DNA of 32,000 bases, taken from NCBI RefSeq assembly GCF_000007985.2, contig NC_002939.5, forward strand, positions 3,240,001 through 3,272,000, in the 5' to 3' direction. Positions 663 through 30,325 of this stretch are shown in pieces. Under the pieces are notes generated by a model. The model did no database searches. It saw nothing but the letters and a program-made list of their open reading frames with translations, and had not been told where the DNA came from. The translations under genes were made by a program, and so were the position numbers. Position 1 is the stretch's first letter. Every line of letters begins with the position of its first letter. Source of the DNA: Geobacter sulfurreducens PCA. Its GTDB lineage: Bacteria; Desulfobacterota; Desulfuromonadia; Geobacterales; Geobacteraceae.

Positions 663-761
663 TTACGTGACGCAGGCAGGGAACGCTATCGGGCGAGTAC
701 ATTTTTGATGACAAACAACGGACTCAATGGTAACTATGGGCAAACGCTAATGGGAGTACAC

Positions 762-1199
762 ATGAAGCAACTCAGTGCGGCCGCACTTTTCATATCCGGA
801 GCCCTGCTGCTCCTTTTGCCCCGGATTCTTGCCCCCGTCTGCATCCACGCTTCGAACATCGACCCTAAGCTCGGCGCATTCATGCCGTGCAGCGATGCGG
901 CTGCCATGACCTACGTAATCGGGGCCATCACCATGGCATGCAGTTGCGCTGTCATGTTCGCCCCCGACACTGCGACTGCGAAAGGGGCTCTCTGGTTGTG
1001 CCTGACGCTGGCGGGGCTCCTCTTCTACGGCTACCTGCTGACTCCCGGCGTCTGCCACGCGGAGGGAATGCCGTGCCGGGCAAGCACCCTGCCAGCGGCC
1101 CTCGCCCTGGGAGCCTTTCAGGTGTTCTTCAGCCTGCTGGGCCTTTTCTCGATCGGATCACTCGACCGGTTCCGCGCCTCGCTTCGCCGCCGCACCTGA
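762..1199 (+). CDS. DUF4418-like small integral membrane protein with paired conserved cysteines
   Basis: ORF 705-1199. The ATG at 762 is preceded by GGAG (752-755). Four hydrophobic helices with two C...MPC patterns (PVC...FMPC and GVC...GMPC), as I recall for DUF4418. Family assignment is from memory. Confidence 0.6.
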   Translation: MKQLSAAALFISGALLLLLPRILAPVCIHASNIDPKLGAFMPCSDAAAMTYVIGAITMACSCAVMFAPDTATAKGALWLCLTLAGLLFYGYLLTPGVCHAEGMPCRASTLPAALALGAFQVFFSLLGLFSIGSLDRFRASLRRRT

Positions 1200-1391
1200 G
1201 CAGTAACCCGTCGGAGAGCCCCTTTTACCCTTACACCCAGCCCCCTCAACAAGTCGATCACAGCAACCATGCTCCGCTCACCCGCCCCCGAACGGTAACA
1301 TGCACTATCCCATCGGGTTCACCTTCGTGCAATCTCTCCAACTCTATTCATAATTACAATGCCATTGTTTTAAATCATAAATATTATCAAT

Positions 1392-1420
1392 TTGACATAT
1401 GCATACAATGCAATTGAAAT
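1392..1420 (+). promoter_or_regulatory. sigma70-like promoter for the double-cubane protein operon
   Basis: TTGACA (1392-1397), a 17-nt spacer, then TGAAAT (1415-1420). It lies in the only AT-rich island of the region, 37 nt upstream of the ATG at 1457. Confidence 0.45.
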
Positions 1421-1456
1421 ACGCATTATTTTACCGCTTGTTGAGGAGGGGAACGG

Positions 1457-2752
1457 ATGACACCGGAACAGTTTGAAGTGAAGGCCAACCCGGCACTGTG
1501 GGAACGCCTGGGGATGAACGTTGAACGGTTTAGCGGCATGCCGAAAATGCTGACCGAGGCATTCCGAGGCATCTATCTGAGCCAGAAGAACAGGCCGGCG
1601 CGGATGGAGTACTTCGACGGCATGATTGCCGAGCTCCACAGCGGCCGGGTCGAGGAGCTCGTGACGGCCAAGGACGCCGGCCGCCCCGTAGTGGGAACGT
1701 TCTGCGTATATGTGCCCGAAGAGGTCATCATGGCAGTGGGCGGCATCTGCGTGGGGCTGTGCGGCGGCTCCCAGGGATCCATTCCCGATGCGGAGAAAGT
1801 CCTGCCCCGTAACATCTGCCCCATGGTGAAGTCGGCCTTCGGATTCAAGCTCGGCAAGATTTGCCCCTACTTCCAGGCCGTCGACCTGGTCTACGGCGAA
1901 ACTACCTGCGATGCCAAGAAAAAGACCTGGGAGCTCCTGGACCGCGAAGTGCCGACTCACGTAATGGAGATTCCCCAGATGAAGCGGGCGCGGGACAAAG
2001 CCCTCTGGCTGGAGGAGGTAAAGGATTTTACCTCAAAGATGGAGGAGGTATCCGGCAGGAAGGCAACGGCCGAAGGGATCGGCGCCGCCATCCGGGTCAT
2101 GAACGCCAAGCGCCTCGCCCTCCAGCGCCTCAACGACCTGCGCCACCACACCCCCTCGCCCATCAGCGGCAAGGATATGCTCCTCATCCAGCAGATCGCG
2201 TTCTATGATGATCCGGCCCGCTTCACCGCCAACGTGAACGAGCTCTGCGATGAACTGGATGAGCGGATCGCCGCCGGCGTGGCCGTTGCCCCCGCTGCCA
2301 CCCCACGGGTTATGGTATCGGGCACTCCGATGGCCCTCCCCAACTGGAAGCTCCATCACCTGATCGAATCCGCCGGCGCCGTGGTAGTTAATGAGGAAAG
2401 CTGTATCGGTACCCGGTACTACAAGGACCTGACCGACGAGAGCACCGCCACCGTCGACGAGCAACTGAGCCTGCTGACCGACCGGTACATGAAGATCGAC
2501 TGCTCCTGCTTCACCCCCAACGACGACCGGATCGAGCAGGTGCTGGTCGAATACCGGGCGTCCGGCGCCCAGGGACTCATCGACTACTGCCTCCAGTTCT
2601 GCCACACCTACAACATCGAAGCGGTCAAGCTGCGGGAGATGTGTGAGCGGGAGGGGATACCGTTCCTGGCCATCGAGACCGACTACTCCCCCGAAGATGT
2701 GGGGCAGCTCCAGACGCGGATCGAAGCGTTCATAGAGCAGATCCGGGGCTGA
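1457..2752 (+). CDS. double-cubane-cluster protein / 2-hydroxyacyl-CoA dehydratase (BcrC/BadD/HgdB) family iron-sulfur protein
   Basis: 431 aa with SD GAGGAGG upstream. Cys pattern typical of this family: FCVYVPEE, GICVGLCGG, ICPMVK, ICPYF, ETTCDAKKK, ESCIG, DCSCF, DYCLQFCH. Immediately followed by an activase gene. Confidence 0.85.
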   Translation: MTPEQFEVKANPALWERLGMNVERFSGMPKMLTEAFRGIYLSQKNRPARMEYFDGMIAELHSGRVEELVTAKDAGRPVVGTFCVYVPEEVIMAVGGICVGLCGGSQGSIPDAEKVLPRNICPMVKSAFGFKLGKICPYFQAVDLVYGETTCDAKKKTWELLDREVPTHVMEIPQMKRARDKALWLEEVKDFTSKMEEVSGRKATAEGIGAAIRVMNAKRLALQRLNDLRHHTPSPISGKDMLLIQQIAFYDDPARFTANVNELCDELDERIAAGVAVAPAATPRVMVSGTPMALPNWKLHHLIESAGAVVVNEESCIGTRYYKDLTDESTATVDEQLSLLTDRYMKIDCSCFTPNDDRIEQVLVEYRASGAQGLIDYCLQFCHTYNIEAVKLREMCEREGIPFLAIETDYSPEDVGQLQTRIEAFIEQIRG

Positions 2753-2756
2753 AACG

Positions 2757-3503
2757 ATGCTGATCGGGATCGACCTGGGCTCGCGTTCCATCAAGCTGGC
2801 CGCGGTTAAGGATGGAATCCTGGCGGAAAGCCTGGTCGTGGAGAGCGGGTTCGCCCCCCACGACCAGGCAGCACTGCTCCTGGCCCGCTTCAACGCCCGG
2901 CGGGTGGTGTCCACCGGTTACGGCCGCCACTTGGCCCAGCGGCACTTCGCCGGGGAGATCATCACCGAGATCAAGGCCCATGCCCTGGGGGCGCGACACG
3001 CGGACCCCTCATGCGAGACGGTACTGGACGTGGGGGGACAGGATTCCAAGGTGATCAACCTGGACGGCGCGGGGCGGGTGAAAAACTTCCAGATGAACGA
3101 CAAGTGCGCGGCCGGCACGGGTCGGTTTCTGGAGATCATGGCCGCCACCCTCGGCTACACCCTTGCCGAGTTCGGCGAGGCGGCCCTGGCCGCCCGGGAA
3201 GGGAACGCCATCGGAAGCATGTGCGCCGTGTTCGCCGAATCGGAAGTCATCTCCCTCAAGAACCGGGGGACACCTCCGGAGGCGATTGCGCGGTCCGTTC
3301 ACCTTGCCATCGTCGACCGCCTGGCCGCCATGCTGAACAAAGCCGGCCACGGTCGCCGGCTCGTCTTCTCCGGCGGTGCCGCCCGCAATCGTGCACTGGT
3401 CGGGCTGCTGGAGGAACGGCTGGGGGTTCGGTTCACGGTGCCGGAGCGCCCGGAAATAATGGGGGCACTGGGTGCAGCCCTTCACGCCGGCACCCTTGAC
3501 TGA
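2757..3503 (+). CDS. CoA-substrate-specific enzyme activase (BcrAD/BadFG/HgdC-type ATPase, [4Fe-4S]-bridged)
   Basis: 248 aa. ASKHA-fold N-terminus MLIGIDLGSRSIKLA, plus DVGGQDSK, NDKCAAGTGRFLE and a cluster-ligand Cys in SMCAVFAESE. Starts 4 nt after the upstream stop. Confidence 0.9.
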   Translation: MLIGIDLGSRSIKLAAVKDGILAESLVVESGFAPHDQAALLLARFNARRVVSTGYGRHLAQRHFAGEIITEIKAHALGARHADPSCETVLDVGGQDSKVINLDGAGRVKNFQMNDKCAAGTGRFLEIMAATLGYTLAEFGEAALAAREGNAIGSMCAVFAESEVISLKNRGTPPEAIARSVHLAIVDRLAAMLNKAGHGRRLVFSGGAARNRALVGLLEERLGVRFTVPERPEIMGALGAALHAGTLD

Positions 3504-3591: not shown

Positions 3592-3682
3592 CTCAGTTAA
3601 AATGGTTGCGACATCCCGACGCAGACGCTAAAATCACCAGAAAAATCCACCCCATCCGCCACCCCGGCGCCCCGACATCTCC

Positions 3683-4354
3683 ATGCGCGTCCTGATCATC
3701 GAAGACGAAAAGAAGGCCGCCGCCTACCTCCAAAAGGGGTTCGCGGAGAACGGCTTCACGGCCGACACCGCCGCATCCGGCGACGACGGCCTCCACTTGG
3801 CGCGTACCGAGAACTATGACCTGATCATCCTCGACATCATGCTGCCCGGCCGGGACGGATGGGAAGTACTGGAAGAGCTGCGGAAAGAAGGGAGCGAGGT
3901 GCCGGTCATCTACCTGTCGGCCCGGGATGCGGTGCACGACCGGGTGCGAGGGCTTGAACTGGGGGCCGACGACTACCTGGTGAAGCCCTTCGCCTTCTCG
4001 GAACTCCTGGCGCGGGCACGGACCATTCTCCGGCGAGGGCCGTCCCGCCAGCCGGAACGTCTGCGGGCTGACGACCTGGAGATGGATCTCGTGGGGCACA
4101 AGGCCCGGCGGGAGGGAAGGCCCATCGACCTCACCGCCAAGGAATTCATCCTGTTATCGCTGCTTTTGCGCCGTAAAGGCGAGGTACTTTCCCGCACCCT
4201 CATCGCCGAACAGGTGTGGGGAATCAATTTCGACAGCGACACTAACATCGTCGACGTAGCGATCCGTCGGCTACGGCGCAAGGTCGACGACCCCTTCGAG
4301 AGGAAGCTCATCCACACCGTCCGCGGAGCAGGCTATGTACTTGAAGCGAAGTGA
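3683..4354 (+). CDS. OmpR-family heavy-metal response regulator (CusR/CopR-like)
   Basis: 223 aa. Receiver domain with [14 protein letters not shown] and KPF, plus a C-terminal winged-helix Trans_reg_C domain ([11 protein letters not shown]...VRGAGYVLE). Confidence 0.9.
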
Positions 4355-5762
4355 CGGCCCCTCCCCGGGAACGCTCTCCCTTGCCGCGCGTCTCACCGTC
4401 CTCTCCACCCTCGCCACCACCGGCGTCCTCCTCTTTGCCATCGTGTTTCAGTTCCTTGCCCTGGTAAGCGACCTGGAGTTCGAGGACAACGACTTCATCA
4501 TCGACAAGATCCGGGTTATCGAGGCGATCATCGTCCGTTACCCCGAAGACAGAGTGCACCTTGAGCAGGAAGTCCAGTGGGAAGGGAGCATGCGCGAGGA
4601 TAGCCGGTACCTGGTCCGCATCGCCGACGCCCGGAAAAATATCATAATGGAGACGCGGGGAATGGACCGCATTGCCCCGCCCGCCATGTTTCCCCGGCCG
4701 GCCCGGGACACGCACGCCATCGGCCGGGGGAAGAAGCTCAAGACCCCCGAGGGCCGCGTCTACCTGGTAAACGCAGCCTGGACCGACGGGGGACGAGCGC
4801 CGGACAGCCGCCAGATCCAGGTGGCGCTGGACGTAACCGAAGAAGAGGAGATGCTTGAAGGATACAAGCAGAAGATGGCTTTTGTGTTTCTGGCCGGACT
4901 CTTTCTCTCGGCAGGTCTCAACGTGGTGGTGGTGCGACGGGGGCTGCGCCCCCTGGTCCAACTCACGGAGACGGCTGGCCGCATTGACGTGACAACCCTC
5001 CACGAACGGATCGATGCCCGGGTATGGCCTCGTGAGCTGGCCCGTTTCGCCGCCGCCTTCGACGCGATGCTCACCCGGCTCGAATCCTCCTTTGAGCGGC
5101 TTGAATCCTCCTCCGCCAACCTGGCCCACGAAATCCGCACCCCCCTCAACATCCTGCGGGGCGAAGCGGAAGTGACCCTCTCCCGGGCCCGTTCTCCGGA
5201 AGAATACCGCCGGGTCATCGAGTCGAGCCTTGAGGAGTACGAGCGGCTCTCGCGGCTCATCGACAACATTCTCTTCCTGGCCCGGGCCGAGCAGCGGATC
5301 GAACCGGTCCCCCTGGACGCGGGCCATGAACTGGAACTGCTTCAGGACTACTACGGCACCCTGGCAGAGGAAAAGGGAATCGCCATCTCGTGCACCGGCG
5401 AAGGAACGATTTCGGCCGATCCGCTCCTGTTCCAACGGGCCGTCGGGAACGTCCTCTCCAACGCCATCCGCTACACCCCAGCAGGGGGAACGATTACCGT
5501 CAGCATCGATCGGGCCGATGACGGCGCCGCACTCCTGACCGTCATCGACACGGGCATCGGTATCTCCGCGGACGACCTCCCACGGGTCTTCGACCGGTTC
5601 TACCGCAGCAGCGAGGCCCGTACCCTCAATGCCCAGGGAACCGGGCTCGGCCTCGCCATCGTTCGTTCTATCATGGAACTTCACCGGGGGAGCGTGACCA
5701 TCGATAGCGCTCCGGGCAGGGGGACCGCCGTGACGCTCCGCTTCCCACTCGCCAGCCAGTAG
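4335..5762 (+). CDS. heavy-metal sensor histidine kinase (CusS-like)
   Basis: 475 aa. Two TM helices flank a periplasmic domain of about 140 aa. H-box [11 protein letters not shown]-box NAIRYTP, G-boxes DTGIGI and GTGLGLAIV. Overlaps the regulator gene by 20 nt; SD GGAGCAGG. Confidence 0.9.
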
Positions 5763-5852
5763 TTTTTCTTTTCTTTCGAACTACCATTGGAGGCTCCCGA
5801 AGGGGACGGAGAGAGATCCTCAGCCACCGCCTCGCCACGCTCCAGTTACACC

Positions 5853-5874
5853 AGGATGACAAAATTGTCATCCT
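5853..5874. promoter_or_regulatory. CusR/HprR-type response-regulator box
   Basis: AGGATGACAA-AA-TTGTCATCCT: perfect 10-bp inverted arms. The core ATGACAA-NN-TTGTCAT equals the E. coli CusR box core. A TATGAT -10-like hexamer lies at 5905-5910. Confidence 0.7.
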
Positions 5875-5947
5875 TCCGTCATGATCCGGTCAGGTTCTCA
5901 CAGATATGATGGTCTGCTGAAGTATGATCCCTTCATGCGGAGCCTTC

Positions 5948-7849
5948 ATGAACCTGCGCCGTAACCTTGGCATCATCACCCTCTTTTCGCTCATCTACCT
6001 GGCCATCGCCACCGTGACCCGAACCGTGCTCCTCACCATGGTTCCGAAGGGGTCGGGGCTCACGCTCCCCCTTGTGGCAAAGGCCTACGCGGCGGGGCTT
6101 CTGTTCGACGTTGCCGCCCTTGCCTATCTTCTCATCCCGGCAGCCCTCTACCTGATCCTCGCACCACGACGGCTCGTGGAACACAGGAAGCACGCCTGGC
6201 TGGTCCAGGCGGCGTTCCTGGTCATCATCGCCGCCCTCATCTTCGGCGCCGTGGCCGAATACTTCTTCTTCGAGGAATTCGCCACCCGCTTCAACTTCAT
6301 TGCCGTGGACTATCTGATCTACACCGGCGAGGTGATCGGCAACATCCGCGAATCATACCCCCTCGTTCCGATCCTCGGCGCGATCCTGGCCGCGGCCCTG
6401 ATCCTCACCCGGCTGCTGCAGGGCGCCATCGACCGTGCAGCAGCCATCACCTTTTCGGGACGCAGGCGTCGCCTCGGCGCAGCGCTCCTGGCCCTTCCCC
6501 TGGCAGCCCTTCTCTTTGTGAACATCTCCACGACTGCAATCTCCGCCAACAGCTATGCCAACGAACTGGCAGGCAACGGTCTCTACGGCCTGTTCGCCGC
6601 CTTCCGCAACAACGAGCTGGACTTCACGCGCTTCTACGCAACCCGTGACAACCAGCAGGTCATGGCCCGCCTCCGGGACATGGTAGAAGAACGGAACAAC
6701 CACTTCGTTGCGCCCCCACCCCGCATGACCCGCCAGATAACCGGCGAAGGGAGGGAGAAACGGCTCAACGTCATCGTGGTGGTGGAAGAGAGCCTGAGCG
6801 CCGAATTCCTGGGAGCCTGGGGCGACACGCGGGGGCTGTCGCCGAACATCGACCGCCTGGCCCGGGAATCCCTCGTCTTCTCTCATCTCTACGCCAGCGG
6901 CACGAGGACCATCCGGGGGCTCGAAGCCCTCAGCCTCTCCATTCCGCCGCTCCCCGGGACCTCCATCGTCAAGCGCCCCGACAACGGCGGATTCCGCTCC
7001 TGGGGCGAGGTCATGAAGGAAAAGGGGTACGATACCCGCTACATCTATGCCGGTTACGGCTACTTCGACAACATGAACGCCTTCTTTTCCGCCAACGGCT
7101 TCGATATCGTGGACCGGAACAGCTTTGCCCAGGACGAAATCACCTTCGCCAACATCTGGGGAGTCTGCGACGAAGACCTCTTCCGCAAAACCATCCGGGA
7201 GTCGCGCGCATCCTTTGCCGCGGGCAGGCCGTTCTTCAGCATGGTGATGACCACCTCCAACCACCGCCCCTTCACCTACCCGGCGGGAAAGATCGACATC
7301 CCTTCAAAAACCGGCCGCGACGGGGGGGTAAAGTACGCCGACTATGCTATCGGCAGGTTCCTCGCAGAGGCGCGCAAAGAACCCTGGTTCAAGGATACGG
7401 TGTTCGTCTTCGTGGCCGACCACTGTGCCAGCAGCGCCGGCAAAACAGATCTGCCGGTGAAAAAGTACGAGATCCCGCTCCTGGTCTACGCACCCCATCA
7501 CGTCAAGCCGGGACGGGTCGATCGGATGATGGCCCAGATCGACGTGGCCCCCACCGTGCTCGGGCTCCTGAACATGAGCTACACCACCGATTTCCTGGGT
7601 CACGACATACTCAAGGCTGCCAACCGTCCGGAGCGGGCCTTCATCTCCACCTACCAGAAACTGGGTTACATCGAGGGTGACCGGCTCCTTATCCTGAGCC
7701 CCCAGAAGGGGGTGGGCGTCGTCCGCTTCGACCGCCGGAGCGGTGCCACCGAGCCGCTCCCCATGGATGAACGGCTCCTCCAGGAAGCCCTCGCCTGGTA
7801 CCAGGGGGCCAACTACATCTATAAAAACCGGCTCAACAGGATACCCTAG
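5948..7849 (+). CDS. LTA-synthase/MdoB-type membrane-anchored sulfatase-fold (alkaline phosphatase superfamily) transferase
   Basis: ORF 5924-7849. The ATG at 5948 has SD GGAG 5 nt upstream. Five N-terminal TM helices are followed by a sulfatase domain (VIVVVEESLSAEF, ASGTRTIRG, TTSNHRPF, VFVADHC). Confidence 0.85.
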   Translation: MNLRRNLGIITLFSLIYLAIATVTRTVLLTMVPKGSGLTLPLVAKAYAAGLLFDVAALAYLLIPAALYLILAPRRLVEHRKHAWLVQAAFLVIIAALIFGAVAEYFFFEEFATRFNFIAVDYLIYTGEVIGNIRESYPLVPILGAILAAALILTRLLQGAIDRAAAITFSGRRRRLGAALLALPLAALLFVNISTTAISANSYANELAGNGLYGLFAAFRNNELDFTRFYATRDNQQVMARLRDMVEERNNHFVAPPPRMTRQITGEGREKRLNVIVVVEESLSAEFLGAWGDTRGLSPNIDRLARESLVFSHLYASGTRTIRGLEALSLSIPPLPGTSIVKRPDNGGFRSWGEVMKEKGYDTRYIYAGYGYFDNMNAFFSANGFDIVDRNSFAQDEITFANIWGVCDEDLFRKTIRESRASFAAGRPFFSMVMTTSNHRPFTYPAGKIDIPSKTGRDGGVKYADYAIGRFLAEARKEPWFKDTVFVFVADHCASSAGKTDLPVKKYEIPLLVYAPHHVKPGRVDRMMAQIDVAPTVLGLLNMSYTTDFLGHDILKAANRPERAFISTYQKLGYIEGDRLLILSPQKGVGVVRFDRRSGATEPLPMDERLLQEALAWYQGANYIYKNRLNRIP

Positions 7850-7851
7850 CC

Positions 7852-8712
7852 ATGGAGACGCGATCCTCAGCCCCCCTGGATGCAGGGTTCTGGCTCCGGC
7901 ACTTTGCCGTACCGCTCCTTTTGTTCGGCTTCGCCGTCGCGGCCTGCGAAATAACCCACGTGGACCTGGCCCTGGCCGACCGATTTTACGATTTCGCTTC
8001 AGGCACCTGGCCCGCCCGGGAGTCATGGTGGGCCCAGTGGCTCATCCACAAGCGGGGCAGAGACCTGGTGGTGGTCGTGGCGAGTTTCTCACTGATCGCA
8101 TGGGTCCTCTCGTTCCAGATCGCACGCCTCAAGCGCTGGCGGTGGCAGGCGCTCTACCTGTTGCTGGTCATCTGTCTCGGCACCGGCCTGGTCGCCGTCG
8201 GCAAAAACCTGACCGGCCGCCACTGCCCCTGGGATATGGAGCGTTACGGCGGAACCGTTCCCTACACCAGGCTCTTTGAAGGTCCTACTCCCGGACCCGA
8301 CAAAGGGCGCTGCTTCCCCGCGGGGCACGCGGCAGGCGGCTATGCCCTCATGGGAATCTACTTCGCCCTGCGGGACCGTCGGGTGGCGACCGCCCGGGCA
8401 GGGCTCACGGCAGGCATTGCCCTCGGGACCATCTACGGCTACGGCCAGATGGCCCGCGGCGCCCATTTCCTCTCCCACACCATCTGGTCCGCTGCGGTCT
8501 GCTGGTTCGCGGCACTGGTGCTCTACGCTGCATTCAGGCCGCTCTTGGCCCCATCGGTGCGCAACAGCACCATCATGGATCGATCAGGAAACAATGGACC
8601 GGACGACGGTTGGAACGAGCGGAGGCCGCATCAGACCGTTCCCGACATGCCGGGCATGACGCAGTCGGCGCACGACGCAGGAGAAACCCTTGTCGTCCCG
8701 CGCCGGCCATAG
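7852..8712 (+). CDS. PAP2-family membrane phosphatase
   Basis: 286 aa, multi-TM. Acid-phosphatase motifs KNLTGRHCP, FPAGHAAGG and ARGAHFLSH. Starts 2 nt after the upstream stop. Confidence 0.8.
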   Translation: METRSSAPLDAGFWLRHFAVPLLLFGFAVAACEITHVDLALADRFYDFASGTWPARESWWAQWLIHKRGRDLVVVVASFSLIAWVLSFQIARLKRWRWQALYLLLVICLGTGLVAVGKNLTGRHCPWDMERYGGTVPYTRLFEGPTPGPDKGRCFPAGHAAGGYALMGIYFALRDRRVATARAGLTAGIALGTIYGYGQMARGAHFLSHTIWSAAVCWFAALVLYAAFRPLLAPSVRNSTIMDRSGNNGPDDGWNERRPHQTVPDMPGMTQSAHDAGETLVVPRRP

Positions 8713-10426
8713 CTTTCGTGAAACGCTCTCACTGCCGAATCTCTGGGACGTGGCGGCATTCCTGCTCGTCCTGGGAGTCGTGGCACTCCTGGCATGGGGG
8801 AGCCGGGAAATGGCCGCAACCTTTGTTCCGGGGAAAATCGTGCCCTCGCTCTCCCTGGACCCCCGGCATCTCCCCTATTATGCCCTGCGCACCGTAATCC
8901 GCATGGGAGCGGCACTCTGCCTGTCCCTCGCCTTCACCCTCACCTACGGCACTTTGGCGGCCAAGAGCCGGCGGCTCAGCCCGATCCTCGTCCCGACCCT
9001 CGACATACTCCAGTCGGTGCCGATCCTCGGCTTCCTCTCGGTGACCGTTACCGGCTTTATCGCCCTGTTCCCCGGCAGCCTCATGGGGGTGGAGGCTGCC
9101 TCCATCTTCGCCATCTTCACATCCCAGGCGTGGAACATGGCTTTCAGCTTCTACCAGTCCCTGAAGACCATTCCCCGGGATCTGGGCGAAGCGGCCACCC
9201 TCTTCGGCCTCTCCGGCTGGCAGCGGTTCTGGCGGGTGGAGGCCCCATTCGCGGTACCGCCGCTGGTCTGGAATATCATGATGTCCGTTTCGGGGGGATG
9301 GTTCTTCGTGGTGGCCTCCGAGGCGATCACCGTGGGCAAGACCGCCGTCACCCTCCCCGGAATCGGCTCCTACGTGGCCCTTGCCATTCACCGGCAGGAC
9401 ATGGGGGCCATCGCCTGGGCACTGGCAACCATGCTTGCGGTAATCCTCCTGTATGATCAGCTCTTTTTCCGTCCCCTCGTGGCATGGGCCGAAAAATTCC
9501 GGGTGGAACTCTCCCAGGCGCGCATCGCGCCGGAGTCGTGGTGCCTCACCCTCTTTGCCCGGACACGGTTTCTGGCCCGGGCACTGAGCCTGGCCGGCGC
9601 CCTCCCTGAGCTGCTCACCGAACGCCTTCCCCGGAGACGGAGACCTCGCACCGGCGAACATCGGCATCGCGGGCGACCTGCGGCGCGCATCATGGATCGG
9701 ATCTGGAACGCGGCGTTCGCAGTTGCGGCACTCTGGGCACTCTGGAAGCTGGCGCGCTTCGTGAGCGTGATCCCCTTCGGCGAGATCCTCTCCGTCTTCG
9801 GCCTCGGCCTGGCAACCATGGCGCGGGTTGCTGTCCTTCTGATCATGGCCTCGCTGTTTTGGGTCCCCATCGGGGTAACAATCGGCCTCAATCCCCGGTG
9901 GACAACGCGCGTCCAGCCGGTGGCCCAGTTTCTGGCCGCCTTCCCCGCGAACCTCCTCTTTCCCGCGGCAGTGGTCCTGATCGTGCGCTTCCGCCTCAAC
10001 CCGGAGATATGGACCGCTCCCCTCATGATCCTCGGCACCCAGTGGTACATCCTCTTCAACGTCATCGCGGGAGCTTCGGCCATCCCCAACGATCTGCGGG
10101 AGGCAGCCGCCAACCTGGGGTTGTCGGGGTGGGAGCTGTGGCGGCGACTCCTCCTTCCCGGCATCTTCCCCTCCCTGATCACGGGGCTCGTCACTGCGTC
10201 GGGGGGAACCTGGAACGCAAGCATCGTCGCCGAGGTGGTGAGCTGGGGGCCAACCACCCTTACCGCCACCGGCCTCGGCTCGGCCATCGCCCGTTGGACG
10301 GAGCAGGGCGACTACCCCCACATCGTCCTGGGTATCGCCGTCATGAGCATGTATGTCGTCTGCCTGAACCGCTTCTTCTGGCGCAGGCTCTACCTCCTGG
10401 CCCAGACCAGGTACCGCCTCGACTAG
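8690..10426 (+). CDS. ABC transporter permease, internally duplicated (NitT/TauT-like, two BPD_transp_1 units)
   Basis: 578 aa. TTG start with SD AGGAGA 6 nt upstream, overlapping the PAP2 gene by 23 nt. Two EAA loops: EAATLFGLSGWQRFWRVEAPF and EAAANLGLSGWELWRRLLLPG. Confidence 0.85.
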   Translation: MSSRAGHSFRETLSLPNLWDVAAFLLVLGVVALLAWGSREMAATFVPGKIVPSLSLDPRHLPYYALRTVIRMGAALCLSLAFTLTYGTLAAKSRRLSPILVPTLDILQSVPILGFLSVTVTGFIALFPGSLMGVEAASIFAIFTSQAWNMAFSFYQSLKTIPRDLGEAATLFGLSGWQRFWRVEAPFAVPPLVWNIMMSVSGGWFFVVASEAITVGKTAVTLPGIGSYVALAIHRQDMGAIAWALATMLAVILLYDQLFFRPLVAWAEKFRVELSQARIAPESWCLTLFARTRFLARALSLAGALPELLTERLPRRRRPRTGEHRHRGRPAARIMDRIWNAAFAVAALWALWKLARFVSVIPFGEILSVFGLGLATMARVAVLLIMASLFWVPIGVTIGLNPRWTTRVQPVAQFLAAFPANLLFPAAVVLIVRFRLNPEIWTAPLMILGTQWYILFNVIAGASAIPNDLREAAANLGLSGWELWRRLLLPGIFPSLITGLVTASGGTWNASIVAEVVSWGPTTLTATGLGSAIARWTEQGDYPHIVLGIAVMSMYVVCLNRFFWRRLYLLAQTRYRLD

Positions 10427-10435
10427 GAGCCCGCC

Positions 10436-11743
10436 ATGACCCAACCAGTTTCAGCCGAGCTGCTGCGGCTCGACGGCATCCGGCAATCGTATCGCAAGAC
10501 CGAAGGGGACGAGCACCTGGTCCTCGACGGCGTGACCCTCACCGTCCGCGAGGGGGAGATCGTTGCGCTACTGGGGCGGTCGGGGTCCGGCAAATCAACC
10601 CTTCTCCGGATAATTGCCGGGCTCATCCCCCCCGGCGGCGGCACCGTCAGCTACGGCGGCAGCCCGGTTACCGGCCCCGTGGAAGGGGTGGCAATGGTCT
10701 TCCAGACATTCGCCCTCATGCCGTGGCTCACGGTCCTGGATAACGTGGAGCTGGGCCTGCGGGCCCGCCGGATACCGGCAGCGGAGCGCCGCCGGCGCGC
10801 CCTGGAGGCCATCGACCTGATCGGCCTAGACGGTTTCGAGTCGGCCTTCCCCAAAGAACTCTCCGGCGGCATGCGGCAGCGGGTCGGCTTTGCCCGGGCC
10901 CTGGTGGTGGAGCCGGACCTCCTCCTCATGGATGAGCCGTTCTCGGCCCTGGACGTCCTCACCGCAGAAACCCTCCGGACCGACCTGATCGAACTCTGGA
11001 TCGAGCGGAGAATTCCCACCCGCGGCATTATCCTCGTCTCCCACAACATCGAGGAATCGGTCCTCCTGGCCGACCGGATCGTCATCCTGGGAACCAATCC
11101 CGGCCGGCTCGTGGCAGAGGTCCCGATCCCCCTCCCCCACCCCCGGGACCGGGAAGCTCCCCAGTTCCGCAAGCTCGTGGACGACGTCTACGCCCTCATG
11201 ACCGAGCAGCCGCGCGGTGCCGTACGCCCCGAGGGGGTCACCATCGGTCACCGCCTCCCTGATGCGTCCGTCTCCCGCCTGACGGGCCTCATCGACGCCC
11301 TGGCCCGAGAACCCTACCGTGGACGGGCCGATCTTCCTGAAATCGCCGATGATCAGGGGCTCGGCGTCGATCACCTCTTCCCCCTCCTGGAGGCCCTGGA
11401 GATTCTGGGCTTCGCCCGGGTGGAAGCCGGCGACGTGGAACTCACCCCGTCGGGCCGAAGCTTTGCCGAGGCCGACATCCTCCGGCAGAAGGAGATCTTT
11501 GCCGAGCACCTGGTGCGCCGGGTCCCTCTCGCGGCTCACATCCGCCGGGTATTGGATGAGCGCCCCGGCAACCAGGCGCCGGAAGAACGTTTCCTCCGGG
11601 AACTGGAGGATTTCCTGAGCGAGGACGAGGCTCAGCGGGTACTGCGGGTCGTCATTGAGTGGGGGCGCAACGCGGAGATCTTTGCCTATGATGAAAGCTC
11701 CGGCTTCCTGAGCCTGGAGAATCCCATCGAAGAGGGGCAGTAA
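10436..11743 (+). CDS. ABC transporter ATP-binding protein with C-terminal AAA-associated (winged-helix-like) extension
   Basis: 435 aa. Walker A GRSGSGKST, signature LSGGMRQR, Walker B LLLMDEPFSALD, H-loop VSHN. A C-terminal extra domain of about 170 aa. SD AGGAG. Confidence 0.9.
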   Translation: MTQPVSAELLRLDGIRQSYRKTEGDEHLVLDGVTLTVREGEIVALLGRSGSGKSTLLRIIAGLIPPGGGTVSYGGSPVTGPVEGVAMVFQTFALMPWLTVLDNVELGLRARRIPAAERRRRALEAIDLIGLDGFESAFPKELSGGMRQRVGFARALVVEPDLLLMDEPFSALDVLTAETLRTDLIELWIERRIPTRGIILVSHNIEESVLLADRIVILGTNPGRLVAEVPIPLPHPRDREAPQFRKLVDDVYALMTEQPRGAVRPEGVTIGHRLPDASVSRLTGLIDALAREPYRGRADLPEIADDQGLGVDHLFPLLEALEILGFARVEAGDVELTPSGRSFAEADILRQKEIFAEHLVRRVPLAAHIRRVLDERPGNQAPEERFLRELEDFLSEDEAQRVLRVVIEWGRNAEIFAYDESSGFLSLENPIEEGQ

Positions 11744-11758
11744 GTCACAACTAACGCC

Positions 11759-11787
11759 TTGACCGTATCCGCTTATCCGGATACACT
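11759..11787 (+). promoter_or_regulatory. arsR promoter with embedded ArsR-type operator (site 1)
   Basis: TTGACC (11759-11764), 17-nt spacer, TACACT (11782-11787). The spacer is the dyad GTATCCG-CTTATC-CGGATAC and contains the perfect palindrome TATCCGGATA. The arsR ATG is 6 nt after the -10 hexamer. Confidence 0.6.
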
Positions 11788-11793
11788 AGCCTC

Positions 11794-12135
11794 ATGAAAC
11801 AGGCGGCCCGTTTATTCAAGTCCCTTGCCGATGAAACCCGTCTCCGGATCCTGGCGCTCCTTCTGGCCGAAGAGAAGCTCTGCGTCTGCGATCTCATGGC
11901 GGCGCTGGAACTCCCTCAATCCACCGTATCGAGACACTTGGCCCAGCTCAAAAACGCCGGCTGGGTCGACGACCGCCGGGAAGGGGTGTGGGTGTACTAT
12001 TCCCTTGTAGCGCCCGACTCGCCCCAGCGCCGGGAACTGCAGGCCATCCTGACGCGACACCTTCACTCGGATCCGGTTGCCCGGGCCGACCATGATCGTC
12101 TCGTCGGATTCGGTCAGGGAAATCGTTGCGCCTGA
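11794..12135 (+). CDS. arsR: ArsR/SmtB-family arsenic-responsive repressor
   Basis: 113 aa. LADETRLRIL, As(III)-binding ELCVCDL-type motif (KLCVCDLM), and HTH QSTVSRHLAQLKNAG. Confidence 0.9.
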   Translation: MKQAARLFKSLADETRLRILALLLAEEKLCVCDLMAALELPQSTVSRHLAQLKNAGWVDDRREGVWVYYSLVAPDSPQRRELQAILTRHLHSDPVARADHDRLVGFGQGNRCA

Positions 12136-14645: not shown

Positions 14646-14873
14646 ATGAAAATCGAAGTGCTCGGTACCGGCTGCGCCAAATGCAAAACCCTCTATGAAA
14701 ATGTGCAAAAGGCCGTGGAGATGAGCGGCAAAGAGGCGGAAGTGGTCAAGGTGGAGGAAATCCAGAAGATCATGAAGTACGGCGTAATGAGCACTCCCGC
14801 TCTGGTGATTGACGGCGTCGTCAAATTTTCCGGTAAGGTACCGGCAGCGGATGAAATAAAGGGGATGCTGTGA
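14646..14873 (+). CDS. thioredoxin-fold redox-active disulfide protein 2 (Thioredoxin_3 family)
   Basis: About 75 aa with MKIEVLGTGCAKCK (CxxC). SD AGGAG lies 10 nt upstream of the ATG at 14646. This family is commonly paired with DUF318 permeases. Confidence 0.85.
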   Translation: MKIEVLGTGCAKCKTLYENVQKAVEMSGKEAEVVKVEEIQKIMKYGVMSTPALVIDGVVKFSGKVPAADEIKGML

Positions 14874-15250
14874 TGCGCTCTCTTGCCGCCCTGTCCCTTC
14901 TCCTCATCGCAACCGTTGCCCACGCGGAACTCCCCTCGGCCAGCGACGCCGCCATCAGCCAGGCCCTTGCGTCGGGAAAACCGGCGGTCATCGACCTGGG
15001 GGCCAGATACTGCATCCCCTGCAAAAAAATGGCGCCGATTTTGGAATCCCTGGCGGCGGAATACCGGGGCAGGGCAAACATCCTGTTCATTGACGTCAAT
15101 GGAAACCAGGCCGCGGCGAAGCGGTTCCGGGTGCAGATGATCCCGACCCAGATATTCTTCGACGCCCGGGGAACGGAAGTGAAGCGCCACATGGGCTTCA
15201 TGGACAGGGCCGACATCGTCAGGGAGCTGAGTGTCCTGGGGGTACGGTGA
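14873..15250 (+). CDS. secreted (periplasmic) thioredoxin-family protein
   Basis: Signal peptide MRSLAALSLLLIATVAHA/E, then a thioredoxin fold with active site YCIPC. The start overlaps the upstream stop (TGATG). Confidence 0.85.
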   Translation: MRSLAALSLLLIATVAHAELPSASDAAISQALASGKPAVIDLGARYCIPCKKMAPILESLAAEYRGRANILFIDVNGNQAAAKRFRVQMIPTQIFFDARGTEVKRHMGFMDRADIVRELSVLGVR

Positions 15251-15933
15251 GCTTCCTCGACAACATTGAACAGATTGTCGCGACTCAGCCTTTCCTGGCC
15301 TTCGTTGCGGTCTTTGTCGGGGGAGTGCTCTCGTCGGCCTCCCCCTGCGTCCTGGCCACGATTCCCCTGGTGGTGGGGTTCGTGGGAGGCTATGCGGCAG
15401 AGAGCCGGAAAAAGGCATTTCTCTACTCTCTGTCCTTCATCGTGGGCCTATCGCTCACCTTCACCATCTTCGGCGCAGCGGCGGCCCTCCTGGGGACCAT
15501 GTTCGGCACGGTGGGGGGATGGTGGTATGCGGCCGTGGGCGCCGTGGCGGTGGCCATGGGGCTCCAGATGATGGGGTTCTACGAACTGCGGCTCCCGGTC
15601 CTGCCGCAATTCAGACCGAAACGGGGCGGATTCTGGGGGGCCCTCCTCCTGGGACTCTTCTTCGGGGTCGCCTCATCCCCGTGTGCCACGCCGGTTCTCG
15701 TCGTCATCCTCTCCTTCGCTGCCCTGCAAGGAAACATCCTCTACGGCACGCTTCTCCTCTTCACCTACGCCCTCGGCCACTGCCTCCTCATGCTCGCGGC
15801 CGGCACCTTTACCGGCTTCGTTGAAGCCTTCGCCGCCTCCCGGGGAGTGGCCAACGTCTCCCACTGGGCAAAGCGGGGGAGCGGTGCCGTCATCGCCCTG
15901 GCCGGGGCATGGTTCATCTGGCGGGCGTTCTGA
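15247..15933 (+). CDS. ccdA: CcdA/DsbD-family transmembrane thiol:disulfide electron transporter
   Basis: 228 aa, 6 TM. Two conserved membrane-embedded Cys motifs, SPCVLATIPL and SPCATPVL. GTG start overlaps the upstream TGA (GTGA). Confidence 0.85.
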   Translation: MSFLDNIEQIVATQPFLAFVAVFVGGVLSSASPCVLATIPLVVGFVGGYAAESRKKAFLYSLSFIVGLSLTFTIFGAAAALLGTMFGTVGGWWYAAVGAVAVAMGLQMMGFYELRLPVLPQFRPKRGGFWGALLLGLFFGVASSPCATPVLVVILSFAALQGNILYGTLLLFTYALGHCLLMLAAGTFTGFVEAFAASRGVANVSHWAKRGSGAVIALAGAWFIWRAF

Positions 15934-18371: not shown

Positions 18372-19124
18372 CTACTTCACCGCAAAGCCGTATTTTTCGA
18401 GAACCTTCCGGGCCTCGGCCGACTGGAGGAAGCGCAGGAACTCCACGGCCTCCTTCTTGCCGGTCCCGGTCGTGGTGAGGGCCATGGGGTAGATGACCCG
18501 ATCATGGAGCCCTTCGGGCACGGCGAACAGAATACGGGCCTGCTTCCCCAGTAGCAGCGCGTCGGTCCGGTAGACGAACGCGCCATCCACTTCACCCAGC
18601 TCGGCGTACTTCATCGCTTCACGCACGTCCTTGGCCATGACGAGCTTACCATCCAGCGCCTTGTCGATGCCGGCAGCCTTGAACGATTCCATGGCGTACT
18701 CGCCAGCTGGTACGCTGCCAGGGCTGCCGATGGCGATCTTCCTGAGTTTCGCCAGGTCCTTCATCCCCGCTACCGGCTGTTTCGTGGTGCCCGCGAACAC
18801 CAGCGAGTTATACGCAAAAGCGCAACGGCTCGCCTCGTCTGTAAGTTTGCGGTTCTGGAGATAATCCACCCACTCCCTGTTCGCGGAAATGAACAGGTCG
18901 GCCGGCGCCCCCTGCTCGATCTGCTTGGCCAAGGCGCCCGATGCGCCGTAGTTCTTCAGAAACGTGATTCCGGGCTTCTTTTTCCCGTACTCGGCCGTGA
19001 GCTCATTGATCGCCTCCTTGAGACTCGCGGCCACGGAAAGGCTGAGCTCGGCGGCCGGGGCGGCGTTCGACAGAAACAGGATGCAACAGAAGGCGAAGAC
19101 CAGGTTTTTCATAACGGTTCGCAT
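18372..19124 (-). CDS. modA: molybdate ABC transporter periplasmic binding protein
   Basis: ATG at 19124 preceded by AAAGGAG. Signal peptide MRTVMKNLVFAFCCILFLSNAAPA followed by a ModA-type PBP2 domain (ISANREW, GSPGSVPAGEY). Confidence 0.9.
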   Translation of the reverse strand: MRTVMKNLVFAFCCILFLSNAAPAAELSLSVAASLKEAINELTAEYGKKKPGITFLKNYGASGALAKQIEQGAPADLFISANREWVDYLQNRKLTDEASRCAFAYNSLVFAGTTKQPVAGMKDLAKLRKIAIGSPGSVPAGEYAMESFKAAGIDKALDGKLVMAKDVREAMKYAELGEVDGAFVYRTDALLLGKQARILFAVPEGLHDRVIYPMALTTTGTGKKEAVEFLRFLQSAEARKVLEKYGFAVK

Positions 19125-19161
19125 CGATGAATCTCCTTTTGTATAAGAGTACCCCCTGGCT

Positions 19162-20013
19162 TCACACCACCGGCTCCAACCGCACGCCGATGTCAGCCGG
19201 CCGGCCGAAATAGGCCGACGAGAGGACCAGGATGTCAACGCCGGTGGCGGCGTAAACCGCCGCGTTCGACTCGTTGATGCCGCCTGCGGCCGAAATCCTG
19301 GTCATCGGCGCCAGCTTTCTCAGTTGCGGTACAAGCGCCGAAAGATCGGCGGGAGCAACCTTGTCGATCTGAAGGACATCGGGACCGGCGGCGGCCACGG
19401 CCACAGCATCGGCGACACTCTCCGCCTCGACCATGATGGCGGTCTCCGGCGCCCTTTTCCTAAGGTCGCCGATCATGCCGAGGAACGGCTCCAGTCCGCC
19501 CAGGAACGCAGTGTGCTGCCGGAAAACAAGAATCGTCTCCGACAAACCGAGCCGGTGAGGGACTGCACCGGCCGCGGTAATTGCCTTGATGGAAATCTTC
19601 CTCGTGCCGGGGAACGACTTGCGGGTGGTAGTCACCACAACGGCCGGGTTGACGGCCCGGGCCACCGCAATGATCCGGGCAGTGCGGGTGGCAATCCCCG
19701 AGGCATACTCCAGAAGGTTGAGGGCCACCTTCCAGCCCGCATGGAGGGATCCGGCCTCTCCGTCGGCAACCAGAAACTCCACCCCGGCAGAAAGGCGGGT
19801 TCCGCTTTCCTCCATCCGCCCCACACGGGCACCGCACCGATCCAGGAGGCGGCCGGCCTCCTCGGTACCGCAGAGAACGGTTTCTTCCCGGGTGGAAAAG
19901 GTGATTCGCCCCTTCTGACGGCCAATGCCGAGAAGATGTGTGGTGAGGTCGCCGTAGGGACAATCCTCTTCAAAAAAGCGATCGAGCTCGCTGTCCGGCA
20001 GACGGTCCAACAT
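19162..20013 (-). CDS. modD: ModD protein (quinolinate phosphoribosyltransferase-fold, molybdenum-utilisation associated)
   Basis: 283 aa. N-terminal FFEEDCPYGDLTT and a QPRTase-like TIM-barrel C-terminal region. First gene of the modDABC unit. Confidence 0.8.
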   Translation of the reverse strand: MLDRLPDSELDRFFEEDCPYGDLTTHLLGIGRQKGRITFSTREETVLCGTEEAGRLLDRCGARVGRMEESGTRLSAGVEFLVADGEAGSLHAGWKVALNLLEYASGIATRTARIIAVARAVNPAVVVTTTRKSFPGTRKISIKAITAAGAVPHRLGLSETILVFRQHTAFLGGLEPFLGMIGDLRKRAPETAIMVEAESVADAVAVAAAGPDVLQIDKVAPADLSALVPQLRKLAPMTRISAAGGINESNAAVYAATGVDILVLSSAYFGRPADIGVRLEPVV

Positions 20014-28910: not shown

Positions 28911-28999
28911 TGCCGCTCCTGCTCTTTTTGTGGCTCCGGCACCGTTTCCGTGGTATAGAGGTGTGCTTTCACACTCCAGCGACACGAGGTTCGACCGCC

Positions 29000-29596
29000 A
29001 TGCATCAAGCCATCGACTGGCTCGTCGCCACCATCGGCGCCATGGGCTACCCGGGCATCTTCATCCTCATGGCCATGGAGAGTTCGGTCTTCCCGGTGCC
29101 CAGCGAACTGGTCATGCCCCCGGCCGGCTATCTCGCCCAGCAGGGCGAGATGAACATCTGGCTCGCCATCTTCCTGGGAACCGCGGGGAGCCTCGCCGGG
29201 GCCTATGCCAACTACTTCGCCGCCCACTACCTGGGACGGCCGCTCCTGCTCAAGTACGGGAAATATGTCTGGATTACCGAGGAGAAATTCGCTCGGGTCG
29301 AGTCATTCTTCCACAAGCACGGGGAGATTTCAACCTTCATCGGGCGCCTGCTGCCGGTGGTCCGGCACCTTATTTCCCTCCCCGCGGGCCTGGCCGGGAT
29401 GCACCACGGCACGTTCACCCTCTACACCCTGCTGGGAGCCTTCATCTGGTGTACCATCCTCGCCTGGATCGGCTACGTCATCGGCGAGAACCGCGACCTG
29501 ATCATGGAGTATTCCCACCAGGCCCTCATCGGAGTAGTGATCTTCAGCGTGGCTCTGGTAGCAGTCTATGTGTGGAGGCACCGGCGAAAGAAGTAA
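29000..29596 (+). CDS. DedA-family membrane protein
   Basis: ATG at 29000. Signature GYPGIFILMAMESSVFPVPSE and FIGRLLPVVRHLISLPAG. Confidence 0.85.
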   Translation: MHQAIDWLVATIGAMGYPGIFILMAMESSVFPVPSELVMPPAGYLAQQGEMNIWLAIFLGTAGSLAGAYANYFAAHYLGRPLLLKYGKYVWITEEKFARVESFFHKHGEISTFIGRLLPVVRHLISLPAGLAGMHHGTFTLYTLLGAFIWCTILAWIGYVIGENRDLIMEYSHQALIGVVIFSVALVAVYVWRHRRKK

Positions 29597-29616
29597 GCGC
29601 ATCGGCGCCAGTGAAT

Positions 29617-29657
29617 GAAAAGCCCCGGCAATGGACAGCATCGCCGGGGCTTTTTTG
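29617..29657. terminator. bidirectional rho-independent terminator between dedA and tal
   Basis: AAAAGCCCCGGC (stem 29621-29629), a 13-nt loop, then GCCGGGGC (29643-29650) and T6. Confidence 0.85.
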
Positions 29658-29680
29658 CATGGTGCACTGCACTTCTCCCC

Positions 29681-30325
29681 TTACTTGGGCACGCTTTCCC
29701 AGTCCTTCAGGAACCGCTCGATGCCGGAGTCGGTGAGGGGGTGCTTGGCCAGCTGGAGCATGACCGAGTAGGGGATGGTGGCGATGTCCGCACCGATGAG
29801 GGCCGCGTTCAGGACATGAACGGGGTTGCGGACGCTGGCCACGATGATCTCGGACTGGTAGCCGTAGTTGTCGAAGATGGTCTTGATGTCGTCGATGATC
29901 CCCATGCCGTCCTGGGAGATATCGTCCAGGCGTCCCACGAAGGGGGAGACGTAGGTAGCGCCGGCCTTGGCGGCAAGCAGGGCCTGCATGGGGGTGAAGA
30001 TCAGGGTGACGTTGGTCTTGATCCCCTCACGGGTAAGGGCGGCACACGCCTTGAGCCCCTCGGGGGTCATGGGGAGCTTGATGACGATGTTCTTGTGGAT
30101 CTTGGCCAGCTCCCCGGCCTCCCTGATCATGCCGGCAGCCTCCAGAGAAACCACTTCCGCGGAGATGGGACCGTCGACGATCTCGGTGATCTCCTTGATG
30201 ACGTCCTCAAACTTGCGGCCGGACTTGGCGATAAGCGACGGATTGGTGGTAACCCCGTCCACGAGTCCCAGGTCGTGGGCTTGGCGGATTTCCTTAACGT
30301 CAGCGGTGTCGATGAAAAATTTCAT
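29681..30325 (-). CDS. tal: transaldolase / fructose-6-phosphate aldolase (short type 3B)
   Basis: ATG at 30325 with [28 protein letters not shown], active-site VIKLP and FVGRLDD. Confidence 0.9.

Follow-up and report, generated by a model that had tools for sequence, protein, structure and literature searches.

What does a heavy-metal-type two-component system control when the genes beside it encode envelope enzymes and not an RND efflux pump? This question is raised by six genes on the plus strand of a 32-kb stretch of the Geobacter sulfurreducens PCA genome (hereafter the window, meaning the whole stretch that was analysed), which encode a response regulator, a sensor histidine kinase, an LtaS-like membrane transferase, a PAP2 phosphatase, and the permease and ATPase of an ABC transporter (Table 1). 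A preliminary description of this DNA had treated all six as one envelope system. We find that the conserved unit is smaller than proposed and consists of the two-component system, the transferase and the PAP2 phosphatase. This unit is rather probably a new form of the envelope remodelling exemplified by PmrAB-EptA, ColRS and mcr-pap2-dgkA, in which a CusR-type system drives the transferase and PAP2 genes.

The layout given in the preliminary description is accurate for all six open reading frames (ORFs). Regulator and kinase genes overlap by 20 nt, 2 nt separate transferase from PAP2, the PAP2 and permease genes overlap by 23 nt (the permease start being AGGAGA followed by TTG), and 9 nt separate permease from ATPase. 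The domain descriptions of the six proteins likewise agree with their Pfam and NCBIfam matches. NCBI has G. sulfurreducens proteins that match the transferase with 100% identity. The arsR gene directly downstream of the cluster is ArsR1, GSU2952 (PMC9488089), and the position of the six genes relative to it identifies them as GSU2946–GSU2951. The reported absence of an RND pump, a P-type ATPase or a multicopper oxidase extends to the whole window. A periplasmic binding protein is also missing from the cluster, as had been noted, the only solute-binding protein in the window being ModA of the mod operon (18372–19238, minus strand).

The element predicted to tie the two-component system to the transferase lies in the kinase–transferase spacer of 161–185 nt, which the preliminary description passed over. 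At 92 nt upstream of the transferase gene, this spacer holds the palindrome ATGACAAAATTGTCAT, the single exact match to ATGACAANNTTGTCAT in the window, for which the chance expectation is about 0.37 even with three mismatches allowed. The cluster therefore comprises at least two transcription units. In E. coli K-12, the cusR-cusC spacer reads AAAATGACAATTTTGTCATTTTTCTGTCAC, and its box, ATGACAATTTTGTCAT, agrees with the Geobacter box at 14 of 14 specified positions. The E. coli box also stands at a comparable distance from the start codon of its target and has a similar third half-site after it (TGTCAC, in the cusC promoter). An alignment of six promoters, one of them from Verrucomicrobiota, brings the box into register together with the third half-site and a -10-like hexamer.

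The distribution of the box follows that of the two-component system. Box-like sites occur at -73 to -111 of transferase orthologues in a Geobacteraceae metagenome-assembled genome (MAG; locus L001), Geomonas (L002), an unclassified deltaproteobacterium (L067) and Sulfurimonas (L030), and a Verrucomicrobiota MAG (L046) carries an exact copy upstream of its orthologue. All five loci with a CusR-like regulator of at least 67% identity have the box. In G. pickeringii and Geotalea uraniireducens (L081, L083), the transferase occupies the syntenic site beside modCBA without a two-component system, and no box was found at this site in either genome. This co-variation is the strongest evidence for direct control of the transferase promoter by the regulator. 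Of the earlier proposal that the two-component system is wired to the envelope genes, the transferase part is thus borne out by an exact box and a conserved promoter, while the ABC transporter drops out as a conserved part. A scan upstream of the regulator gene itself, in the region of the promoter-like site listed in Table 1, found no CusR box.

Table 1. Coordinates of the GSU2946–GSU2951 genes and of the predicted regulatory sites in the window.
Feature	Position in window	Strand	Basis
Promoter-like site TTGCGA-17-TAAAAT upstream of the regulator gene	3606–3634	+	consensus scan alone, weak
OmpR-family response regulator, CusR/CopR/HprR type (GSU2946)	3683–4354	+	Response_reg and Trans_reg_C, TIGR01387
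Heavy-metal-family sensor histidine kinase (GSU2947)	4335–5762	+	HAMP/HisKA/HATPase_c, TIGR01386
CusR-box palindrome ATGACAAAATTGTCAT, predicted regulator binding site	5856–5871	.	sole exact match in the window
Predicted promoter: third half-site GTCATG (5878–5883) and -10-like TATGAT (5905–5910)	5878–5910	+	conserved alignment columns
LtaS-like membrane phospho-head-group transferase (GSU2948), VP1736/3LXQ family	5948–7849	+	Pfam Sulfatase, 1.4e-43
PAP2 phosphatase, distinct subfamily (GSU2949)	7852–8712	+	Pfam PAP2 (PF01569), 63.9 bits, 1.6e-17
Internally duplicated NitT/TauT-type ABC permease (GSU2950)	8690–10426	+	two BPD_transp_1 stretches
ABC ATPase with C-terminal PF09821 (GSU2951), obligate permease partner	10436–11743	+	ABC_tran and AAA_assoc_C, 8e-44

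Both signalling proteins belong to the CusRS/CopRS family of heavy-metal-type systems, as had been proposed, since each exceeds its curated subfamily cutoff. The regulator scores 338.2 bits against TIGR01387 (heavy-metal response regulator, cutoff 279.2) and the kinase 377.4 bits against TIGR01386 (heavy-metal sensor kinase, cutoff 292.55). The equivalog cutoffs are missed (HprR, 291 vs 353 bits; CusR, 284 vs 420; CusS, 230 vs 423). The regulator and E. coli CusR share 57% identity from end to end, DNA-binding domain included; the kinase is 29% identical to E. coli CusS, and its hydropathy places transmembrane helices at 16–34 and 182–200, around a periplasmic domain of about 147 aa. Analogy within the family suggests that the kinase may respond to an oxidant or to a metal, for instance Cu(I)/Ag(I).

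The longest ORF of the transferase begins at 5924. The start adopted in Table 1, which gives 633 aa and matches public database proteins, is most likely the correct one. Five N-terminal transmembrane helices are followed in the hydropathy profile by a soluble domain of about 440 aa, which belongs to the alkaline phosphatase superfamily, and PF00884 covers residues 282–550, with OpgB and LtaS as the best weak matches. Judged from the positive charge of loops 2 and 4, the soluble domain and the highly conserved loop-3 motif EYFFF-E-F-TRFNFIAVDYLIYT-EVIGNIRESYP are predicted to be periplasmic. The closest solved relative is 3LXQ (1e-85), deposited as 'uncharacterized protein VP1736', with LtaP and LtaS next among solved structures (1e-17 to 1e-15). 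Among 10 orthologues, E280/E281, T319/T321, N438-H439 and D491-H492 are invariant. These residues align with motifs of LtaS and LtaP that we take to be the metal ligands and nucleophile of LtaS, which would make T319 or T321 the nucleophile of GSU2948. No CxPxR sulfatase (formylglycine) motif is present in the transferase. A role as a true sulfatase or hydrolase was considered, but five transmembrane helices, a Thr replacing the Cys/Ser-x-P-x-R motif and LtaS-type residues make it unlikely. The family is large: at 50% identity, a library search gave 1,704 clusters meeting E ≤ 1e-30, and full-length relatives with E below 1e-120 number more than 150. No paper mentioning VP1736, 3LXQ or AAA_assoc_C was found in the literature searched.

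The neighbourhood of the transferase was compared by scanning one genome per species, which yielded at least 583 relatives, of which 80 loci with 44–69% identity were kept. They come from Desulfuromonadia, Nitrospirota, Bacteroidota, Campylobacterota, Alpha-, Beta- and Gammaproteobacteria, Verrucomicrobiota, Planctomycetota, Acidobacteriota and Elusimicrobiota, all of which we take to be diderm. An OmpR-type regulator or kinase lies within 6 kb of the transferase in about 25 of the 80 loci and abuts it in about 20. When abutting, the genes take one of three arrangements: regulator-kinase-transferase, a regulator-kinase pair divergent from the transferase, or transferase-regulator-kinase as in pmrCAB, the last being the order of the Bacteroidota loci. 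A PAP2 gene of the same subfamily is directly adjacent in about 16–18 of the roughly 68 loci with room for one, spanning Gamma-, Beta- and Alphaproteobacteria, Campylobacterota, Planctomycetota, Verrucomicrobiota and Magnetococcales. The dgkA gene is near the transferase in five genome loci and in one plasmid locus (L171). Neither the duplicated permease nor a PF09821 ATPase occurs at any of the 80. The transferase/PAP2/permease trio that had been singled out for such a comparison is therefore reduced to a recurrent transferase–PAP2 pair.

Most of the other recurrent neighbours in Methylococcaceae and some Geobacteraceae (dapF, xerC, queC, tldD and lptF/G-like genes, by our own reading of the sequences) look like syntenic housekeeping genes and were rejected as partners. 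Separately, in four Geobacteraceae MAGs (L004, L005, L007, L031), the transferase homologue (55–58% identity) follows genes for lptF/lptG-like permeases of lipopolysaccharide (LPS) export. These four loci also carry, upstream, a gene for a repeat-rich, secreted-looking protein (labels again from our own reading) and have no two-component system. Their context hints at a link to LPS, though it may be plain synteny.

The PAP2 partner belongs to a distinct subfamily whose closest NCBIfam models are PAP2_lipid_A and PAP2_near_MCR1, both under cutoff. No solved structure was found as a sequence relative of it. In 13 transferase-adjacent partners, P126, C154-x-P156-x-x-H159, G203-x-H205 and H209 are invariant, and so are the catalytic His motifs PxGH and GAH(F)xS(H/D). 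Joint action with the transferase is further suggested by P0410, a protein of 892 aa encoded on a single 4.6-kb JGI metagenome contig (L173, 1168–3846). P0410 is a natural PAP2–transferase fusion, its N-terminal part being 32% identical to GSU2949 (2e-39) and its C-terminal part 45% identical to GSU2948. This Rosetta-stone evidence comes from one contig, and P0410 may be an assembly or gene-calling artefact. Adjacency in several phyla, together with this fusion, supports transferase and PAP2 as a recurrent functional pair. The P0410 gene itself stands between thiC-like and pcm-like genes, as we read their translations.

An independent regulatory context is found in Pseudomonadaceae. Full-length transferase orthologues (46% identity) are carried by the P. 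aeruginosa plasmid CP137941.1 (L171), whose source is a clinical bronchoalveolar isolate, and by a P. veronii plasmid (L172), in both cases adjoining Tn3-family/Tn4652-like transposase genes (tnpA-tnpC). On the P. aeruginosa plasmid (L171, 5864–18942), the order transferase, PAP2, dual-specificity phosphatase is divergent from a second block of regulator, kinase, S-adenosylmethionine methyltransferase, InaA LPS kinase, dgkA and a second LtaS-like gene. The first four genes of this block follow the P. putida order colR-colS-PP0903-PP0904. The P. putida ColR regulon includes the PAP2 gene PP0900 and dgkA (PMC2689224). In six of seven Pseudomonadaceae loci, an exact copy of the published ColR consensus ACGNNTTTTTNAC stands at -83 to -89 upstream of the transferase; the seventh has it with one mismatch. 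With a CusR box in Geobacter and a ColR box in Pseudomonas, the cassette would therefore answer to two regulator types, each from a family that is associated with metal stress. The two plasmid loci are possibly a mobile envelope-remodelling island.

How much of this is new? The combination had been put forward as an undescribed system, which it is not in its outline: a two-component system with a transferase of the alkaline phosphatase superfamily, PAP2 and DgkA is a documented context of eptA/mcr genes and of the ColR regulon (PMC10285318, PMC2689224). In the eptA/mcr case, a five-helix enzyme with a periplasmic domain moves a phospholipid head group to lipid A. Its gene either shares an operon with the genes of an OmpR-type two-component system or diverges from them, and a PAP2 lipid A phosphatase and/or DgkA is often encoded next. 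A natural PAP2–transferase fusion is known in this family too (PMC10285318). Around the GSU2948 family, two-component, PAP2 and dgkA contexts and a fusion recur in the same way as for PmrAB-EptA, mcr-1-pap2 and mcr-3-dgkA. Unlike EptA/MCR, GSU2948 has no EptA_N domain (PF08019): apart from PF00884, a Pfam search at E ≤ 0.01 returned just a weak SGSH_C match. Its catalytic domain is nearer to LtaS, LtaP and OpgB. Furthermore, the Geobacter regulator is CusR-type with a CusR box and not PmrA, and the PAP2 protein is of a distinct subfamily.

The same mixture of likeness and difference is seen with the other known systems. The resemblance to the ColRS regulon lies in the Pseudomonadaceae transferase–PAP2 orthologues, which sit behind a ColR box and diverge from a block of colR-colS-PP0903 (methyltransferase)-PP0904 (InaA) order. 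In Geobacter, however, the regulator is of the CusR/CopR subfamily with another DNA site, and no methyltransferase, InaA or dgkA gene is present in the window; nor does the ColR regulon of P. putida, as described in the accessible portion of PMC2689224, contain an LtaS-like gene. With E. coli CusRS-cusCFBA and HprRS, the Geobacter system shares regulator and kinase families above subfamily cutoffs, the box at all specified positions, a similar box distance and a third half-site. It differs from CusRS-cusCFBA in that its output is an envelope transferase and a phosphatase instead of an RND efflux pump, and in a sensor domain that is not conserved with CusS. As in LtaS/LtaP, the Gram-positive lipoteichoic acid synthases, and OpgB/MdoB, five transmembrane helices precede an extracytoplasmic domain in GSU2948, with an invariant Thr and invariant positions aligned to metal ligands. 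It scores far under the equivalog cutoffs of OpgB and LtaS, and the organisms sampled here are from diderm phyla.

The gene structure, the family assignments, the box with its co-variation and the conserved neighbourhoods were computed directly; from here on we infer a signal, activation by the regulator, a donor, an acceptor and a physiological effect. GSU2947 would sense a periplasmic cue, which by family may be an oxidant or a metal of the Cu(I)/Ag(I) kind. Phosphorylated GSU2946 would bind the box and activate the promoter ahead of GSU2948. In the inner membrane, GSU2948 would use the Thr nucleophile and bound metal of its periplasmic domain to move a phospho-alcohol head group from a membrane phospholipid to an envelope acceptor, with release of diacylglycerol. 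Phosphatidylglycerol is the likely donor and diacylglycerol the likely by-product, as for LtaS/OpgB, so that phosphoglycerol would most likely be transferred, with phosphoethanolamine as an alternative. The co-translated GSU2949 would act in the same pathway, either by an LpxE-like removal of phosphate that creates or unmasks the acceptor site, or by processing a lipid phosphate intermediate. The most probable acceptor would be lipid A or core lipo-oligosaccharide (LOS), favoured by the affinities of the PAP2 protein, by the InaA context and by a distribution confined to diderms, with periplasmic glucans second. Altered surface charge and cation binding would be the expected effect. DgkA recycles the diacylglycerol by-product of head-group transfers (PMC10285318, PMC2689224), and the dgkA neighbours fit such a by-product. 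The EptA/LpxE-type chemical logic already put forward for this locus is, as an analogy, reinforced by these neighbours and by the ColRS-like, InaA-bearing Pseudomonas locus.

A broader proposal is offered tentatively, as a possibility that we would not yet favour. GSU2948/VP1736-family enzymes and their PAP2 partners may carry out an undescribed head-group modification of lipid A/LOS, for example phosphate removal followed by addition of phosphoglycerol or another phospho-alcohol. They would then form a further two-component-controlled class alongside EptA/MCR and ArnT, under metal-sensing regulators of CusR type (Geobacter) or ColR type (Pseudomonas), and mobile on Pseudomonas plasmids. If such a class exists, tolerance to metals and to cationic peptides (polymyxin) could be affected. 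If the cassette reading is right, a function and a regulatory logic would be given to a large diderm family of membrane enzymes (at least 1,700 clusters at 50% identity, at least 583 species) that has a crystal structure but no known activity, and a CusR-type copper system would drive envelope remodelling instead of efflux. In G. sulfurreducens, metal binding, vesiculation and extracellular electron transfer are all under the influence of surface charge. The mobile copy on a clinical P. aeruginosa plasmid, with ColRS-like, InaA and DgkA genes, raises the question of polymyxin or metal tolerance. G. sulfurreducens and Pseudomonas both offer testable systems for the cassette.

Several points weigh against a CusR-driven transferase–PAP2 cassette. 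The periplasmic part of the kinase aligns poorly with that of CusS: no common metal-ligand motif was found between them, and the His/Met-rich segment of CusS has no counterpart. The transferase lies below every equivalog cutoff, including those of the best curated match, the OpgB (phosphoglycerol transferase I) model NF009027 (80.3 vs 572 bits, 1.3e-22), of NF003000 (39.9 vs 574 bits) and of LtaS NF053595 (61.5 vs 970 bits). The PAP2 protein similarly stays under PAP2_lipid_A NF028538 (76.7 vs 275 bits), NF028536 (59.6 vs 475 bits) and LpxF (38.3 vs 400 bits), and its first motif has Cys at the position of the canonical Arg. Donor and acceptor cannot be read from the homology of these two proteins. 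About 70% of the orthologue loci have neither a two-component system nor PAP2 close by, and in G. pickeringii and Geotalea the transferase stands alone; the enzyme would thus be able to work without both partners. GSU2946–GSU2951 are not mentioned in the main texts of the literature searched, and the supplements of PMC7726332 do not list them as Co(II)-responsive. The paper on cations and the envelope mentions neither lipid A, nor PAP2, nor a two-component system.

The preliminary reading itself, namely that all six genes form one stress-responsive envelope system with the ABC transporter as the dedicated carrier of a transferase/PAP2 substrate or product, now appears unlikely. It draws on the tight packing of the genes and on the 23-nt PAP2–permease overlap, which suggests that the transporter is co-expressed in G. 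sulfurreducens and to that extent speaks against a smaller unit. Consensus scans of the window and of G. grbiciae also found no promoter-like site before the permease and no terminator-like site at the PAP2–permease junction. In G. grbiciae (L084), the same six genes are kept in order together with the ars operon, at 76–93% protein identity. There, however, PAP2 and the permease are 76 nt apart; the 2-nt transferase–PAP2 spacing is retained. The PAP2 ORF has 286 aa in G. sulfurreducens and 256 aa in G. grbiciae (window 8578–8712 vs L084 10600–10675), and the overlap stems from a non-conserved C-terminal tail of about 45 aa in the former. The absence of permease and ATPase from the transferase loci is mutual: neither transferase nor PAP2 occurs at any of 80 metagenome permease loci. 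In G. pickeringii, Chlorobiaceae and Geoanaerobacter, permease and ATPase occur on their own as a pair, in unrelated contexts, and in the first of these the transferase and this pair are at different loci. The claim that the transporter is a dedicated part of the system fails on these grounds.

The transporter has an identity of its own. The closest solved relatives of the permease are CmpB and NrtB, and the ATPase is TauB/NrtD-like. The ATPase gene is directly 3' of the permease wherever the contig has room, with an ATPase match in 77 of 84 loci. No binding protein or conserved third gene was found beside the pair in 80 metagenome and four genome loci. The missing binding protein, on which the preliminary description had remarked, is thus a trait of the transporter family and not of the GSU2946–GSU2951 locus. 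The pair is therefore a self-contained module without a binding protein, and its placement beside the cassette is clade-specific. GSU2950/GSU2951 probably landed downstream as a separate module in the G. sulfurreducens/metallireducens clade, with read-through from the transferase promoter. The C-terminal domain of the ATPase was described as winged-helix-like, and its AF2 model agrees, predicting a tandem pair: PF09821 (pLDDT 92.5) is modelled as two alpha-beta-alpha-alpha-beta-beta units. Foldseek ranks winged-helix domains highest (O-methyltransferase N-terminal domains, IclR, FokI, OhrR, SelB), with weak matches throughout (E ≥ 2e-3, TM-score 0.3–0.6), and no sequence relative of the domain was found in the PDB. 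The duplicated permease with a PF09821-tailed ATPase represents a widespread two-gene transporter type (window 8690–11743; L085–L088, L091–L170).

A second alternative, which we also hold to be improbable, is that the transferase modifies periplasmic glucans in the manner of OpgB/MdoB and not lipid A/LPS, with PAP2 and DgkA just rebalancing phosphatidic acid and diacylglycerol. OpgB is the best curated match of the transferase, and transferase orthologues occur in rhizobia (L062 and one further relative). Rhizobia make phosphoglycerol-substituted cyclic glucans, for which cgmB of S. meliloti is the phosphoglycerol transferase. Diacylglycerol is moreover a by-product when membrane-derived oligosaccharides are made, and PAP2 and DgkA are reciprocal regulators of phosphatidic acid and diacylglycerol, according to PMC2689224. 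On the other hand, the OpgB match is far under its cutoff (80 vs 572 bits) and no opgG/opgH-type genes are among the conserved neighbours of the transferase. The Pseudomonas context is also centred on LPS, with its InaA LPS kinase, and the nearest models of the PAP2 partner are lipid A phosphatases.

It is quite improbable that the adjacency of the two-component system is incidental, with a box that has another target or none, and with transferase and PAP2 as constitutive housekeeping enzymes. The many orthologue loci without a nearby two-component system, and the lone transferases of G. pickeringii and Geotalea, would fit such a view. The box, however, is confined within the window to the transferase promoter and co-varies with the two-component system. 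In about 20 loci the transferase has two-component genes directly beside it, in three arrangements, and an independent ColR box stands at the same position in Pseudomonadaceae.

To our knowledge, no enzyme has been assigned to the glycerophosphorylation of PilA Tyr32. Although Richter et al. (2017, cited in PMC6201914) reported this modification in G. sulfurreducens and LtaS-type chemistry would suit it, a transferase acting as the protein phosphoform transferase that adds glycerophosphate to PilA Tyr32 is very improbable, given a family spread over Bacteroidota, Planctomycetota, Verrucomicrobiota and many more, the absence of pil genes from its conserved neighbours, and PAP2, dgkA and InaA contexts that indicate lipids or LPS.

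The genes around the cluster complete the picture of the window. The upstream flank carries an MCP gene and a 2-hydroxyacyl-CoA-dehydratase-like pair. Directly upstream of the regulator (705–3503) are genes for a DUF4418 membrane protein, an HGD-D family dehydratase-like protein and a BcrAD/BadFG-type activator ATPase, the last two of which are upstream in G. pickeringii (L081) as well. Downstream lie arsR-arsC-acr3-arsP, a DsbD-like gene, a CDF gene (4 kb from the cluster, past the ars operon) and modCBA/modE. Two ORFs, at 14693–15418 (minus strand) and 28930–29736, have no Pfam match; the former sits between the ArsP permease gene and the DsbD-like gene. Directly 5' of arsR (11759–11794), a promoter-like TTGACC-17-TACACT overlaps the inverted repeat GTATCCG...CGGATAC, which is plausibly an ArsR operator and would set the ars operon apart as a unit of its own.

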